Below are positions 7,133 to 19,932 of a stretch of 64,000 nucleotides of DNA, one piece after another. The translations under genes were made by a program, and so were the position numbers. The stretch is from assembly GCF_044324875.1 (NCBI RefSeq), contig NZ_CP172185.1. One strand, given 5' to 3'. Position 1 is the stretch's first letter, and every line of letters starts with the position of its first letter. This DNA is from Escherichia coli (GTDB lineage Bacteria; Pseudomonadota; Gammaproteobacteria; Enterobacterales; Enterobacteriaceae). Under the pieces are notes generated by a model, which worked only from the letters and a program-made list of their open reading frames with translations, ran no database searches and was not told the DNA's origin.

Positions 7133-7170
7133 AAAAAAACGGGTCACCTTCTGGCGACCCGTTTTTCTTT
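7133..7170. terminator. Bidirectional intrinsic terminator between convergent speC and nupG
   Basis: Hairpin CGGGTCACC/GGCGACCCG flanked by an A-run and a T-run. Confidence 0.5.
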
Positions 7171-14581: not shown

Positions 14582-15589
14582 GTGAAAAAGCAATGGATTG
14601 TTGGCACGGCGCTGATTATGTTGATGACTGGTAATGTCTGGGCAGATGGCGAACCGCCAACTGAAAATATCTTAAAAGATCAATTCAAAAAGCAGTATCA
14701 CGGCATTCTCAAGCTTGATGCTATCAGCTTAAAAAATCTTGATGCTAAGGGTAATCAGGCCACCTGGTCAGCGGAAGGCGATGTCTCTTCCAGTGACGAT
14801 CTCTATACCTGGGTCGGTCAGTTGGCAGATTACGAACTGCTCGAACAGACCTGGACGAAAGATAAACCGGTAAAATTCTCGGCGATGTTAACCAGTAAAG
14901 GAACGCCCGCGTCTGGCTGGTCGGTGAACTTTTACTCTTTTCAGGCGGCAGCCAGCGATCGTGGGCGGGTGGTCGACGATATCAAAACGAATAATAAATA
15001 TCTGATCGTGAATAGCGAAGATTTCAATTATCGCTTTAGTCAGCTTGAGTCTGCGTTGAATAACCAGAAGAACTCGATTCCTGCGCTGGAAAAGGAAGTG
15101 AAAGCGCTTGATAAGCAAATGGTGGCGGCGCAGAAAGCAGCGGATGCATATTGGGGAAAAGATGCAAACGGTAAGCAAATGACCCGCGAAGACGCCTTTA
15201 AAAAAATTCACCAACAGCGTGATGAGTTTAATAAACAGAACGATAGCGAGGCGTTCGCGGTTAAATATGACAAAGAGGTTTATCAACCGGCGATTGCGGC
15301 ATGTCATAAACAGAGTGCAGAGTGTTATGAAGTGCCGATTCAGCAGAAGCGAGATTTCGATATCAACGAACAACGGCGACAGACTTTTCTGCAATCACAA
15401 AAACTTAGCCGTAAATTGCAGGATGACTGGATAACGCTCGAAAAAGGGCAATATCCGTTAACGATGAAAGTTTCAGAAATAAACAGTAAAAAAGTCGCTA
15501 TTTTGATGAAAATTGATGATATCAACCAGGCTAATGAACGCTGGAAAAAAGATACCGAACAACTGCGGCGCAATGGAGTGATTAAGTAA
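14582..15589 (+). CDS. yggM: Periplasmic DUF1202 protein YggM
   Basis: GTG start; signal peptide; matches YggM. Confidence 0.85.
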   Translation: MKKQWIVGTALIMLMTGNVWADGEPPTENILKDQFKKQYHGILKLDAISLKNLDAKGNQATWSAEGDVSSSDDLYTWVGQLADYELLEQTWTKDKPVKFSAMLTSKGTPASGWSVNFYSFQAAASDRGRVVDDIKTNNKYLIVNSEDFNYRFSQLESALNNQKNSIPALEKEVKALDKQMVAAQKAADAYWGKDANGKQMTREDAFKKIHQQRDEFNKQNDSEAFAVKYDKEVYQPAIAACHKQSAECYEVPIQQKRDFDINEQRRQTFLQSQKLSRKLQDDWITLEKGQYPLTMKVSEINSKKVAILMKIDDINQANERWKKDTEQLRRNGVIK

Positions 15590-15607
15590 CTCATGTTAAG
15601 TACCTTT

Positions 15608-15646
15608 GCCGGATAATATAAAAAGTTATCCGGCAAATTATTTTTT
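15608..15646 (+). terminator. Intrinsic terminator after yggM
   Basis: GCCGGATAA/TTATCCGGC hairpin followed by a T-rich run. Confidence 0.55.
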
Positions 15647-16946
15647 ACATTAGCCCTAGTAGCTGTGGAATGAACAAGGATATTTGCGGGATGTAAGTGA
15701 TCATCATCAACGCGATTAACAATGCGGCATAAAATGGCAGCAATGGTTTGATCAAATGTTGAATCTTCACACCTGAAATAGAACAACCAACAAATAGCGC
15801 ACTACCCACCGGCGGTGTTAACAGCCCAATACAAAGGTTAGCCACCATCATAATACCGAAATGTACCGGATCCATTCCCAGCTCTTGTGCAATCGGCAAG
15901 AAGATTGGTGTGAAGATTAGTACAGCCGGTGTCATGTCCATAAAGATGCCGACAATTAATAAGACGATATTAATCAGCAGCAATATGATCAGTGGGTTAT
16001 CAGAAATCCCCATCAACGCGTCGCTGATCATATAAGGAATATCAGCATTGGTCATTGACCAGGACATGCCCACGGAAAAACCGATCAACAGTAATACAAT
16101 CGAAGTGGTAACAACCGATTCCAGAATCAGTTTGGGTAAATCGCGCCATTTTACTTCCCGGTAAATCAGCACCGAGAGAATAAATGTGTAGACAACGGCA
16201 ATCGCAGACGCTTCAGTTGCGGTAAAAATGCCGCCCAGAATGCCGCCCATTACAATGAACACCAGAAGCAAACTTGGTAAGGCATCCAGAAACGCTTTAC
16301 AGGCCTGAGCAAAGGTTGCTCTTTCTGAAAGTGGGTAGCCACGGCGTTTAGCAATAATGCCGCAGACTATCATTACCGCAAGACCCATTAAGATCCCTGG
16401 CAAATATCCCGCCATAAATAACGATGCTACAGAAACGCCGCCAGCTGTCAGGGAAAACACAATTAACACGTTTGAGGGCGGTATCAGTAATCCAGTAATA
16501 CAGGATGAGACGTTTACAGCGGTAGAAAATGCCGGATCATAACCTTCTTTGGTCTGAATGGGATTCAGTGTGCCACCAACGGCAGCAGCTGCCGCAACGG
16601 CTGAACCAGAAATGGAACCAAACATCATATTCGCCAGGACGTTCACATGACCAAGCGAACCAGGAACGCGGCCAACCATTACCTGGGCGAGGTTAATCAA
16701 ACGTATCGCAATACCGCCGCTGTTCATCAGCGTTCCGGCAAAGATGAAAAAGGGGATTGCCAACAGGGCAAAGTTATCCAGTCCATTAGCCAGTCGCTGC
16801 GAAACAGTGATTGCCGCGATATCCCAGGGAAACATCAAAAGCATTGAAGCTACAGTGGCAATACCGATTGAGAACGAAATGGGCACACCAATAAAGACCA
16901 GCACAAAAAAACAGCCAAACAGTGTAAGCGCGATATAACTATCCAT
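15645..16946 (-). CDS. TRAP transporter large permease subunit (DctM family)
   Basis: 433-aa polytopic membrane protein with DctM-like sequence; start overlaps the upstream dctQ-like stop (TAATG). Confidence 0.85.
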   Translation of the reverse strand: MDSYIALTLFGCFFVLVFIGVPISFSIGIATVASMLLMFPWDIAAITVSQRLANGLDNFALLAIPFFIFAGTLMNSGGIAIRLINLAQVMVGRVPGSLGHVNVLANMMFGSISGSAVAAAAAVGGTLNPIQTKEGYDPAFSTAVNVSSCITGLLIPPSNVLIVFSLTAGGVSVASLFMAGYLPGILMGLAVMIVCGIIAKRRGYPLSERATFAQACKAFLDALPSLLLVFIVMGGILGGIFTATEASAIAVVYTFILSVLIYREVKWRDLPKLILESVVTTSIVLLLIGFSVGMSWSMTNADIPYMISDALMGISDNPLIILLLINIVLLIVGIFMDMTPAVLIFTPIFLPIAQELGMDPVHFGIMMVANLCIGLLTPPVGSALFVGCSISGVKIQHLIKPLLPFYAALLIALMMITYIPQISLFIPQLLGLM

Positions 16947-17458
16947 TAACTGGCCTCCTGCGCAGGTTGTTTCAGTTGTTGAATGCTTTGATTAATAAAA
17001 CACAAGGCATAAAACATCATCACCAATCCACTTAATGGCAGAATGATATATACGTATCCCATCGGTATTTGCATCGCGGCAGATACCTGTGATGTTGCCA
17101 GTGTTTTATCAATTAATTTCAGGCCACCAGTCACAATGACCGAACCGGCAAAACCTAAAATAAGAACGTTAATGACTATACTAAGAAGTAATTGCTTGCG
17201 CTTATTCAGGGCGAGAGCAAATAAATCGATAGAGAGATGTCTCTGCGCGCCGACGGTATATGCAGCACCTAATAATCCTACCCAGATCATCAAAAAGCGT
17301 GCTAGCTCATCGGTTAATGTACTTGGCTGGTTAAGTACGTAGCGGCTAAATACTTGCCAGACTACGCATACAACCAGAGCAAGCATTACGGCGACAGAAA
17401 ACGCGGCAATGACGCGGTCTACCGCAAGTTTCAGGCGGTTAAATATCATTGTAAGCAT
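16946..17458 (-). CDS. TRAP transporter small permease subunit (DctQ family)
   Basis: 170-aa four-helix membrane protein lying between the SBP and large permease genes. Confidence 0.8.
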   Translation of the reverse strand: MLTMIFNRLKLAVDRVIAAFSVAVMLALVVCVVWQVFSRYVLNQPSTLTDELARFLMIWVGLLGAAYTVGAQRHLSIDLFALALNKRKQLLLSIVINVLILGFAGSVIVTGGLKLIDKTLATSQVSAAMQIPMGYVYIILPLSGLVMMFYALCFINQSIQQLKQPAQEAS

Positions 17459-17493
17459 CCTGGAAAATCAGGGCCAGAGACTGGCCCGGAATA

Positions 17494-18480
17494 TTATTGA
17501 GCAGCGTTGTCGAATTTCTCTAACAAAGCAGCTTGTTTTGGATCTTTTTTGAAGTCGTCAAACAGAGGCTGAACTGCGGCACGGAATGGGGCTTTATCAA
17601 CCTTAACGATTTCACCACCCATGGCTTTCGCCTGAGCACGTGTGTCAGCGTCAATTTTTTCCCACAATTTTTGTTGATAAGCTTCGGATTTCTTCGCCGC
17701 TGTTTCGAGGATTTGTTGCTGTTCTGGGGTTAATTTATTCCATGTTTTGGTGGAGATAACCAAAAAGTCAGGAATTGAGGCATGTTCATCTTCAGAAAAG
17801 ACTTTGGCAATTTCGATATGTCGAGTCTGCACCCAAGAAGGCACGTTATTTTCTGCGCCGTCTACTACACCTTGCTGCATCGCAGTATAAACTTCGCCAA
17901 ATGAAATTGGAGTGGGTGAGCCCCCCATCAGTTCAATCATTTTGATGGTGGTCGGGCTTGGCTGAACACGAATTTTCAGCCCTTTAAGATCTTCTGGCTT
18001 AGTAATCGGTTTTTTCGCATAGAAACTGCGTGTACCCGCTACATAAGCTGATAAAGCAAAAAAGCCTTTATCTTTTGTTGAATCCATAATTTCTTTACCA
18101 ACTTCACCAAAAACCACTTTGTTGAAGTGCGCCTGATCTTTAAATAAGAACGGCAAATTATAGATAGCATAAATATTATCAAAAGACTCCAGATCACTGG
18201 CGGAACCTTTGGTCATATCCAGTGCACCATTTTGCAACAACTCCATAGTTTCTCGCGCATTACCCATCTGGCTGCTGGGGTAAATACGGATCACCATATT
18301 ACCTTTTGACAGCTGTTTTACTTCTTTCGCCAGCTCTTCAAAACTCTGATGTACAACATGACTTCTTTCCAGGTTGTGTGCTAACTTTAACGTCACTTTT
18401 TCTGCGGCGTTTACGCCAGTGCTAACCAGAGCCAGCAAGGATGCGCAGACTAATGAGCGGGTAAATGACCTCATTTTCAT
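17494..18480 (-). CDS. TRAP transporter periplasmic solute-binding protein (DctP family)
   Basis: Signal peptide plus DctP-like sequence (GTRSFYAKKPI, QGVVDGAEN). Confidence 0.85.
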   Translation of the reverse strand: MKMRSFTRSLVCASLLALVSTGVNAAEKVTLKLAHNLERSHVVHQSFEELAKEVKQLSKGNMVIRIYPSSQMGNARETMELLQNGALDMTKGSASDLESFDNIYAIYNLPFLFKDQAHFNKVVFGEVGKEIMDSTKDKGFFALSAYVAGTRSFYAKKPITKPEDLKGLKIRVQPSPTTIKMIELMGGSPTPISFGEVYTAMQQGVVDGAENNVPSWVQTRHIEIAKVFSEDEHASIPDFLVISTKTWNKLTPEQQQILETAAKKSEAYQQKLWEKIDADTRAQAKAMGGEIVKVDKAPFRAAVQPLFDDFKKDPKQAALLEKFDNAAQ

Positions 18481-18795
18481 AAAAAAACTCCCTGTTGAAG
18501 AATGGAAATTGGTTGATATCTAATTGTGATTATCAGTGCTTTGTGCGACAAATTGGTTAACCTGTCTGACAACTTGTCTATGTTTATCACAACTTGAAAT
18601 AAAGTCAGAAATTAAATATTAATTTTGTGCGCCAGGTTGTACATGTTTATAATCAATAAATGATGAGTAAGTATTCACTAAATATATATAATAAATGTCG
18701 TCGATATTTATTCAGTAAGGAAATATATTTTTGCCGAAGTAAATTAACGCGGGGGATAAAAGAAGTGATTAATGCGCCCGCAGGCGCATTAATGA

Positions 18796-19932
18796 TTACT
18801 CAGCGAGGAATAATTCAAGAAGTGAGTTTAAGAATAATTTACCATGCTCGGTTATCTGCCAGTAATCTGCACATTCTGTGAGATAACCCTGAGCGATAGC
18901 CTCGTCTAACTGAGGGCGAATAACTTCTTCAGAAAGGCCAGTATACTGGCTAAACTCCACGCGCGGCGCGGCTTCCAGCAGACGGAAGCGATTCATAAAG
19001 AACTCAAACGGCTTATCTGCAGCTTCGACATCACGCTGGCTTTCCAGATACCTTCCTTGCATAAAACCACGCGGATGACGCGTTTTGGTGGTACGCAGAA
19101 TGCGCCCATCCGGGAAGGTCACTTTGCCGTGCGCGCCGCAGCCAATACCAATGTAGTCGCCAAATCGCCAGTAGTTGAGATTGTGCTGGCACTGATAACC
19201 GGGTTTGGCGTAAGCGGATGTTTCATACTGCTGATAGCCCGCTGCGGTTAATAACTGATGCCCCTGTTCGAAAATATCCCACAGCGCGTCATCGTCCGGC
19301 AGTACAGGAGGGCGCGAGCCAAACAGCGTATTAGGTTCGATGGTCAGTTGATACCAGGAAAGATGTGGCGGATTCAGTTCAATAGCCTGGCGCAGATCGC
19401 CTAGCGCCTCTTCCAGTGATTGATCCGGCAGCCCATGCATCAAATCAAGGTTAAAACTACGTAACCCTAAACCGCTCGCCAGCTTCGCCGCTCGTTTCGC
19501 TTCTTGCGGGCCATGAATGCGCCCAAGTCGTTTCAGCTTTTCTTCGCTAAAACTCTGCACACCAATAGAGATGCGGTTCACACCAGCACGCTGATAATCG
19601 ACAAAGCGATCGGCTTCAACCGTACCAGGGTTCGCTTCCATAGTAATTTCTGCATCCGCTGCCAGCGGCAAACGCGCACGCACGCCGTCCAGCAGCGTTT
19701 GCATCGCCGGGCCGGAAAACAGGCTCGGCGTACCACCGCCAATAAAGATTGTCTGCACTTCACGGCCCTGAGCGTAAGCCACGTCGTTGTCCAGATCGCA
19801 AAGCAGATGCTGAACATAATCGTCGTGCGGCACTTCTCCTTTCAACGCGTGAGAGTTGAAATCGCAGTACGGGCATTTCTGCACGCACCACGGGATGTGA
19901 ATGTAGAGACTCAGCGGCGGTAATTTAACCAT
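18796..19932 (-). CDS. hemW: Radical-SAM heme chaperone HemW (YggW)
   Basis: CxxxCxxC radical-SAM motif (CVQKCPYC); matches HemW. Confidence 0.95.

Follow-up and report, generated by a model that had tools for sequence, protein, structure and literature searches.

Genes and features of the locus

The window is the whole stretch of Escherichia coli DNA that was analyzed. It contains 64,000 nucleotides, and its closest match was E. coli VCSW7, with 99.9% identity over 801 bp. The plus strand encodes yggM. The minus strand then encodes dctM, dctQ, and dctP, the genes of a DctPQM-type TRAP transporter, followed by hemW, rdgB, yggU, yggT, and yggS. hemW and the TRAP operon are co-directional and lie 315 bp apart. 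In the RefSeq annotation of the 99.9% identical strain VCSW7, hemW is the last gene of the co-directional yggS-yggT-yggU-rdgB-hemW run. A palindrome lies between hemW and the TRAP operon. Both of its flanking genes are read from the minus strand, and transcription therefore reaches it in the hemW sense only. A literature search on a TRAP operon next to hemW or yggM retrieved nothing relevant. The features of the junction are as follows.

15645 to 18480, minus strand: TRAP transporter operon, with dctP at 17494 to 18480 (TIGR00787), dctQ at 16946 to 17458, and dctM at 15645 to 16946 (TIGR00786)
18748 to 18767, minus strand: pyrimidine-rich, G-poor tail, RNA sense CACUUCUUUUAUCCCCCGCG, with a displaced imperfect U-tract and a C-run at 18751 to 18755
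18768 to 18793, minus strand: stem-loop with perfect 11-bp arms (18768 to 18778 and 18783 to 18793) and a 4-nt loop (18779 to 18782)
18796 to 19932, minus strand: hemW coding sequence, an open reading frame matching NCBIfam TIGR00539 (HemW, E = 5.5e-142), with its TAA stop codon at 18798 to 18796

Structure of the palindrome

The sequence-only reading described a perfect 11-bp inverted repeat with a CGCA spacer at 18768 to 18793, directly 3' of hemW, and the letters agree. The plus strand reads ATTAATGCGCC (18768 to 18778), the CGCA loop, and GGCGCATTAAT (18783 to 18793). The side facing the TRAP operon is AT rich, as was also described. The spacer to the hemW stop codon had been given as 3 bp and is in fact 2 nt (18795 to 18794).

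The hemW-sense RNA of the palindrome is AUUAAUGCGCC-UGCG-GGCGCAUUAAU. It contains 5 G-C pairs at the top of the stem and 6 A-U pairs at the base. The predicted fold has an energy of -17.2 kcal/mol (z = -4.0), a stability matched by 1 of 200 shuffles. As in a terminator, this is a stable GC-rich stem-loop, with an 11-bp stem and a 4-nt loop. It also lies past the end of the gene and operon on the transcribed (minus) strand, with 2 nt between the hemW stop and the stem.

The 64-kb window contains three perfect inverted repeats (arms of at least 11 bp, loops of 3 to 10 nt), each located at a gene end; 100 dinucleotide-preserving shuffles gave a mean of 0.15. No second copy of the hemW palindrome was found within the window. 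An Rfam scan of positions 18300 to 19000 at a permissive E-value gave STnc130 as the best hit, with 23.9 bits against a gathering score of 55 (E = 0.34). When viral contigs were scanned for the exact arms of the palindrome around a free loop, there were 0 matches.

Of the other two repeats, the first, at 15605 to 15637, has perfect 12-bp arms (TTTGCCGGATAA-N9-TTATCCGGCAAA), and TTATTTTTT comes after it. The yggM and dctM stop codons converge on it, and it marks the other end of the segment that varies among E. coli strains. It has the look of a terminator shared by the two genes, with arms similar to half of a REP unit (GCCGGATAA). The second, at 7135 to 7166 (AAAAACGGGTC...GACCCGTTTTT), has the classic form of a bidirectional terminator.

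Conservation of a hairpin across genera

A stem-loop follows the hemW stop codon in 22 of 22 enterobacterial hemW-TRAP loci examined. It starts 2 to 13 nt past the stop. The exception is Citrobacter amalonaticus, in which the hairpin lies ~86 nt past the stop, behind an extra segment. This segment (locus L014, ~2474 to 2560) contains ~75 nt, is MITE-like, and carries the inverted repeats GGGTGATG...CATCACCC at its ends. The intergenic region there is 527 bp, versus ~310 bp elsewhere.

We folded 55-nt segments from the window and from 20 junctions of other enterobacterial species. For the first 55 nt past the stop, the mean minimum free energy of the 21 junctions was -16.4 kcal/mol and the mean z was -4.5, with z at or below -3 in 16 of 21. 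Four other 55-nt segments of the intergenic region had mean z values of -0.3 to 0.0, with at most one locus at or below -3. The arms differ between genera, as in the following examples.

Kluyvera: ATATATTTCGCCATTA...TAATGGCGAAATATAT
Klebsiella: TTATCCCGTTAT...ATAACGGGATAA
K. pneumoniae: TTGTCCTTCCC...GGGAAGGACAA
Citrobacter sp. 18056: ATGATGCCTGT...ACAGGCATCAT

The hairpin is conserved as a structure and a position, not as a sequence, and turnover is complete between genera. Two compensatory double changes were found in the stems within homologous groups. One is a C-G to U-A change in Kluyvera intermedia relative to Pseudocitrobacter and Kluyvera genomosp. 3 (TTCGCCATTA/TAATGGCGAA versus TTCGCTATTA/TAATAGCGAA). 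The other is a U-A to C-G change that sets Klebsiella indica and Phytobacter apart from other Klebsiella (CCCGT/ACGGG versus CCCGC/GCGGG).

The core of the E. coli hairpin is homologous to hairpins in Citrobacter. GCGCC-TGNN-GGCGC is common to On2M, C. braakii, and C. amalonaticus, and in these it is followed by T-tracts.

Citrobacter On2M: TAATCACCG-ATGCGCC-TGCG-GGCGCAT-ATTTATTT
C. braakii: TGCGCC-TGTC-GGCGCA-TTTTCTTCT
C. amalonaticus: ATGCGTC-TGC-GGCGCAT-ATTTT (tail also given as ATATTTT)

Judged by their letters, the Citrobacter homologues are canonical predicted terminators with a stem and a T-tract. In E. coli, the flanks of the core appear to have become ATTAAT on both sides. This would have lengthened the stem from 7 to 11 bp and eroded the T-tract.

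The hairpins were also compared in sense and antisense folding energy. The split among 24 hairpins was 9 versus 15 (p = 0.46), which is no strand preference. This is because most of the hairpins are perfect palindromes. Non-Watson-Crick pairs in the main stems were G.U in 3 to 5 cases and A.C in 1, so very few cases bear on the strand. Sense-only wobbles were found only in the B1-type allele of E. coli, in K. oxytoca, in a MAG, and in C. amalonaticus, the last of which was read by hand.

Distribution and alleles within E. coli

The hemW-TRAP junction was matched end to end in 1,468 of 5,426 complete E. coli genomes. The palindrome itself was retrieved from ~1,484 of the 5,426 with a 76-nt probe centered on it. 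The median was 1 copy per genome, located at the hemW 3' end in every hit listed. The highest copy number was 1 with a 44-nt probe and 2 with the 76-nt probe, the latter in the IS1-split strain AREA_492. In this strain (L010, ~395 to 470), IS1B is inserted in the left arm of the palindrome and leaves ...CGCCCGCAGGCGCATTAAT next to hemW. One of the ~1,484 matches sits on a plasmid-typed record rather than on a chromosome.

The 44-nt probe recovered the perfect allele in 928 genomes. A GGCGC>GACGC allele was present in 504, and another single difference was present in ~50. The GACGC allele was retrieved from O26, O111, O121, and O45-type strains. With it, the hemW-sense RNA still pairs through a U.G wobble, but the opposite strand would have a C.A mismatch. 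This sense-only pairing lends mild support to a function in the hemW transcript.

The palindrome could be neutral, having arisen by chance or being the decayed remains of a terminator. Compared with Citrobacter, the U-tract has decayed, and one strain tolerates an IS1 in the left arm, as a structure without function would allow. The 44-nt core argues the other way. In ~1,480 genomes it is present almost only as the two main alleles, and both pair in hemW-sense RNA, while the adjacent C-run and flanks vary freely. A hairpin is also kept at the hemW 3' end in every genus examined despite the complete sequence turnover. We regard a neutral palindrome as improbable.

Strains without the TRAP operon carry a different hemW 3' end. 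In the TRAP-less genomes listed, the BLAST match ends at or just inside the hemW stop codon. Four of these genomes were read, one of them K-12-like. Their yggM-hemW intergenic region is 64 to 154 bp and contains 1 to 3 REP units. A REP hairpin begins ~11 nt after the hemW stop, and there is no trace of the palindrome. Two partial-coverage genomes (H68 and H69) were suspected of carrying the palindrome without TRAP, and both still have the operon. The sequence-only reading held that the same palindrome at the hemW end of TRAP-less strains would mark it as an ordinary terminator. When the yggM-hemW junctions were compared, it was absent there. Despite this absence, the palindrome is nothing unusual: it remains an ordinary gene-end hairpin, and a REP hairpin takes its place in TRAP-less strains.

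Promoter boxes of the TRAP operon

Seventeen intergenic regions, from as many genera or species, were aligned. Blocks conserved in sequence are present in the dctP-proximal half only (GCGCACAAAA, TGTGA, GATGTCnGACAAC, and ATGTCATACAG). The conserved boxes are also given as TGTCnGACAAC and TGTCATACAG. In the window they lie at 18539 to 18633, which is 59 to 143 bp from the dctP ATG.

18623 to 18633, dctP sense: TRAP promoter box, GGCGCACAAAA
18575 to 18592, dctP sense: TRAP promoter box, TTGTGATAAACATAGACA, containing the invariant TGTGA
18563 to 18572, dctP sense: TRAP promoter box, TTGTCAGACA
18539 to 18551, dctP sense: TRAP promoter box, TTGTCGCACAAAG

The boxes resemble TGT-N-ACA-type operator sites, together with what may be a CRP half-site, and there is no adjacent regulator gene.

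In Buttiauxella, Edwardsiella, Mangrovibacter, and Enterobacillus, the TRAP operon lies away from hemW. The same boxes still precede dctP in all four genera, and the palindrome was not found in the 200 bp upstream of dctP there. The regulatory module of the TRAP operon thus appears to move with the operon, and the hairpin appears to stay with hemW.

These regions bear on the proposal that the palindrome is an operator, which would bind a dimeric regulator of the TRAP operon or of hemW. It has the form of one: a perfect 11-bp inverted repeat with a 4-bp spacer, intergenic, and upstream of the TRAP operon. An operator would be conserved across orthologous regions and lie near the promoter. The palindrome sequence is unconserved in the orthologous intergenic regions in which the boxes are conserved, and it lies 288 bp from the dctP start. 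One of its arms is mutated in 504 genomes. Its half-site is not enriched in the window, with 5 matches at no more than 1 mismatch versus 2.1 expected, and 9 of 100 shuffles were equal. The palindrome does not travel with the operon, and the operator role suggested by the sequence-only reading is highly unlikely.

Origin of the hemW-TRAP arrangement

A DctP protein scan with one genome per species recovered 44 loci. hemW is directly upstream of dctP on the same strand in 23 full-length loci, usually with an intergenic region of 293 to 315 bp. The hemW-TRAP loci include Citrobacter (6 species), Kluyvera (7), Klebsiella (7), Pseudocitrobacter, Phytobacter, and an Escherichia species. Amino-acid identity between E. 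coli and C. amalonaticus was 94% for DctP and 92% for HemW, which is about equal divergence. The synteny common to several genera and the equal divergence of the two proteins indicate that the TRAP operon is ancestral. The TRAP-less arrangement of K-12 is, on this comparison, the derived one and appears to be a REP-filled deletion; the TRAP operon would not be an insertion.

Three records outside the Enterobacteria were retrieved in the same scan: MAGs of a Collinsella sp. and a Bacillota bacterium and an Alicyclobacillaceae isolate (L011, L012, and L052). Their DctP is 99 to 100% identical to that of E. coli, and two carry a flanking hemW or yggM. These records are almost certainly E. coli contamination.

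The two E. coli haplotypes are 98% identical up to the yggM stop codon and then sharply different. The last ~200 nt of hemW (18796 to 19000) are 72 to 90% identical between the TRAP-positive and TRAP-less haplotypes in 50-nt windows, rising to 96 to 100%. The rest of the gene is ~96.5% identical. The HemW C-terminal residues shown are identical in both haplotypes, so the differences at the hemW 3' end are synonymous. GC3 is 0.46 versus 0.60. Neither haplotype of the hemW 3' end is nearer to the outgroups, and both are 70 to 80% identical to other genera. This divergence points to an old, deep polymorphism or to an indel-linked import. It reaches ~200 nt into hemW, so the palindrome lies inside the variable segment and not at its edge.

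The palindrome had also been proposed as the boundary of a TRAP insertion. As such it could be the end of a mobile element, an attachment site, or the scar of a recombination event. BLAST alignments of TRAP-positive against TRAP-less strains do stop exactly at the hemW stop, with the palindrome just within the variable segment. A 9-bp direct repeat, AGTGATTAA, is also present near both ends of the segment, at 15577 to 15585 (end of yggM) and at 18764 to 18772 (overlapping the left arm of the palindrome). The premise of an insertion is wrong, since hemW followed by TRAP with an intergenic region of ~300 bp is common to several genera and the TRAP-less K-12 type is derived. The 3.2-kb segment contains the three TRAP genes only, with no integrase or transposase. 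The haplotype divergence runs past the palindrome into hemW. Chance alone would give about 20 such 9-mer pairs in 3.3 kb. An empty site formed from this repeat would delete the yggM stop codon, and the TRAP-less junctions differ from it.

The AGTGATTAA pair was considered as a target duplication. It was the sole flanking direct repeat found and was judged to be chance, incompatible with the TRAP-less junctions. A mobile-element junction would show a segment absent from the ancestral arrangement, terminal repeats or a target duplication, and mobility genes. Here the synteny is ancestral, the segment is free of mobility genes, and one 9-bp repeat at chance level is present. That the palindrome marks an insertion boundary is extremely unlikely.

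Tail and C-run downstream of the stem

The tail after the E. coli stem is CACUUCUUUUAUCCCCC, also written CACUUCUUUUAUC. CAC makes up the first 3 nt past the full stem. The U-tract, CACUUCUUUU, is weak, interrupted, and displaced by 3 nt. A lenient consensus scan (at least 5 T in 8 bases, from 2 nt past the stem) flags the hairpin as terminator-like, and the tail contains 6 T in 8 nt from +3. The d'Aubenton-Carafa-type decay-weighted tail score was -0.73 with the full stem and -1.3 to -1.4 with the GC core alone as the stem. The tails of the Citrobacter homologues scored -2.1 to -3.4. By tail scoring, the U-tract is absent in most other genera too.

There is nearly an even chance that the hairpin is a leaky Rho-independent terminator of the yggS-yggT-yggU-rdgB-hemW transcript and releases polymerase by itself. 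Counting against this version are the poor U-tract with its CAC and its score of -0.73, the weaker tail of B1-type strains, the lack of a U-tract in most genera, and the energy test without a strand preference.

The main rival is a Rho-dependent end with a protective hairpin. In this version the hairpin would not release polymerase. Rho would load on the untranslated C-rich RNA that follows it and terminate diffusely in the intergenic region, and exonucleases would trim the transcript back to the stem-loop, which would set the stable 3' end. We consider this a real possibility, if on balance a doubtful one. A proper U-tract is lacking here and in most genera. In E. coli, C outnumbers G by 9 to 2 in the 20 nt past the stem, and a C11-14 run is present in many strains. 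Between +45 and +125 past the hemW stop, 22 of 22 loci have more C than G (360 C versus 154 G); the remaining intergenic region of the same loci contains 758 C and 679 G. Dar and Sorek (2018, PMC6061677) reported that Rho-dependent transcripts of E. coli end just past stable stem-loops, with reduced uridine and a mild downstream enrichment of C over G, and that such stem-loops shield the RNA against PNPase and RNase II. The weak tail and the excess of C over G downstream of the hemW hairpin fit this description of Rho-dependent ends (PMC6061677). Against it, the Citrobacter homologues carry canonical T-tracts, and the tail in the window keeps its 6 T in 8 nt. Past the first 20 nt, the E. coli sequence is also AT rich with a C/G ratio of only ~1.2, so the C enrichment lies mainly in those 20 nt.

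The C-run at 18751 to 18755 (a G-run on the plus strand) lies 8 to 12 nt downstream of the hairpin. It is hypervariable, with lengths from 3 to 14 among 11 E. coli sequences. The lengths seen were 3, 5, 5, 6, 7, 11, 11, 12, 13, and 14, plus one interrupted run of 7+6. Long C-runs replace part of the T-tract. The tail of B1-type strains is CACUUCUUC and then C11-14, and it is weaker still. The hairpin and C-run together might form a tunable gate for read-through. Slippage would alter Rho loading or the residual U-tract and hence the leak from the hemW operon into the TRAP operon. We think this very unlikely. If true, a nutrient-uptake operon would be insulated from a housekeeping operon by a phase-variable element.

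A further motif was observed in this region. At 18729 to 18740, the window contains ACTTCGGCAAAA. CTCG-N6-CCGA or TTCCGAA(T)AAT-like motifs are present in 1 to 2 copies just downstream of the hairpin in most genera (alignment columns 75 to 115).

Interpretation of the hairpin

The palindrome is very probably an RNA-level transcript-end hairpin of hemW, taking the leaky intrinsic and the Rho-only versions together. Of the possibilities raised by the sequence-only reading, the hemW terminator stem is the one that held up. It is favored by the hairpin in all 22 loci, the sequence turnover, the compensatory changes, and the canonical homologues in Citrobacter.

In the proposed mechanism, polymerase would pass the hemW stop codon and the RNA would fold into the 11-bp stem with its GC-rich top, followed by the weak, displaced U-tract. 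A terminating ribosome covers the nucleotides just past the stop codon. Only 2 nt separate the stop from the stem, so this ribosome would cover the 5' arm, and the hairpin would presumably fold only after it leaves. The hairpin may then act as a leaky Rho-independent terminator. Once finished, it would block 3'-to-5' exonucleases and so fix and stabilize the transcript end. Rho would probably load on the C-rich, G-poor RNA just downstream, which is untranslated, and stop the polymerases that read through. In this way the separately regulated TRAP operon would be insulated from the upstream housekeeping operon.

In the ~27% of E. coli genomes with the ancestral TRAP operon, the hairpin would mark where the yggS-hemW operon ends at its 3' side. 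It has little import beyond annotation. It is a previously unannotated, unremarkable instance of a well-known kind of element. It does provide a clean example of a gene-end hairpin that is held in position and structure while its sequence turns over between genera. The decayed U-tract of E. coli may also be a small test case for intrinsic and Rho-assisted termination replacing each other.

Comparison with known systems

Operators of dimeric factors resemble the palindrome in being perfect inverted repeats in intergenic DNA. Unlike them, it shows no sequence conservation, lies far from the promoter-proximal boxes, and does not move with TRAP.

REP and BIME elements are many dispersed copies with a common consensus. 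The palindrome is single copy and has no visible resemblance to the REP units of the K-12-type junction. It is like them in place, since 1 to 3 REP units occupy the same site in TRAP-less E. coli, with a hairpin ~11 nt past the hemW stop. REP hairpins stabilize upstream mRNA and attenuate transcription.

The protective stem-loops at Rho-dependent ends (PMC6061677) are closer. The hemW hairpin is likewise stable, lacks a proper U-tract, is followed by more C than G, and lies in untranslated RNA right past the stop codon. It differs in that its downstream C enrichment in E. coli is mainly in the first 20 nt.

The intrinsic terminators of Enterobacteria differ from the hemW hairpin in their U-tract, which here is displaced by 3 nt, interrupted, and weak in score. 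The lower 6 bp of the hemW stem are also all A-U (ATTAAT on both sides). The resemblance lies in a GC-topped stem-loop that comes right past the last stop codon of the operon on the transcribed strand and leads into a T-rich stretch. The hairpin is also homologous to the Citrobacter hairpins that carry a stem and a T-tract at the same site.
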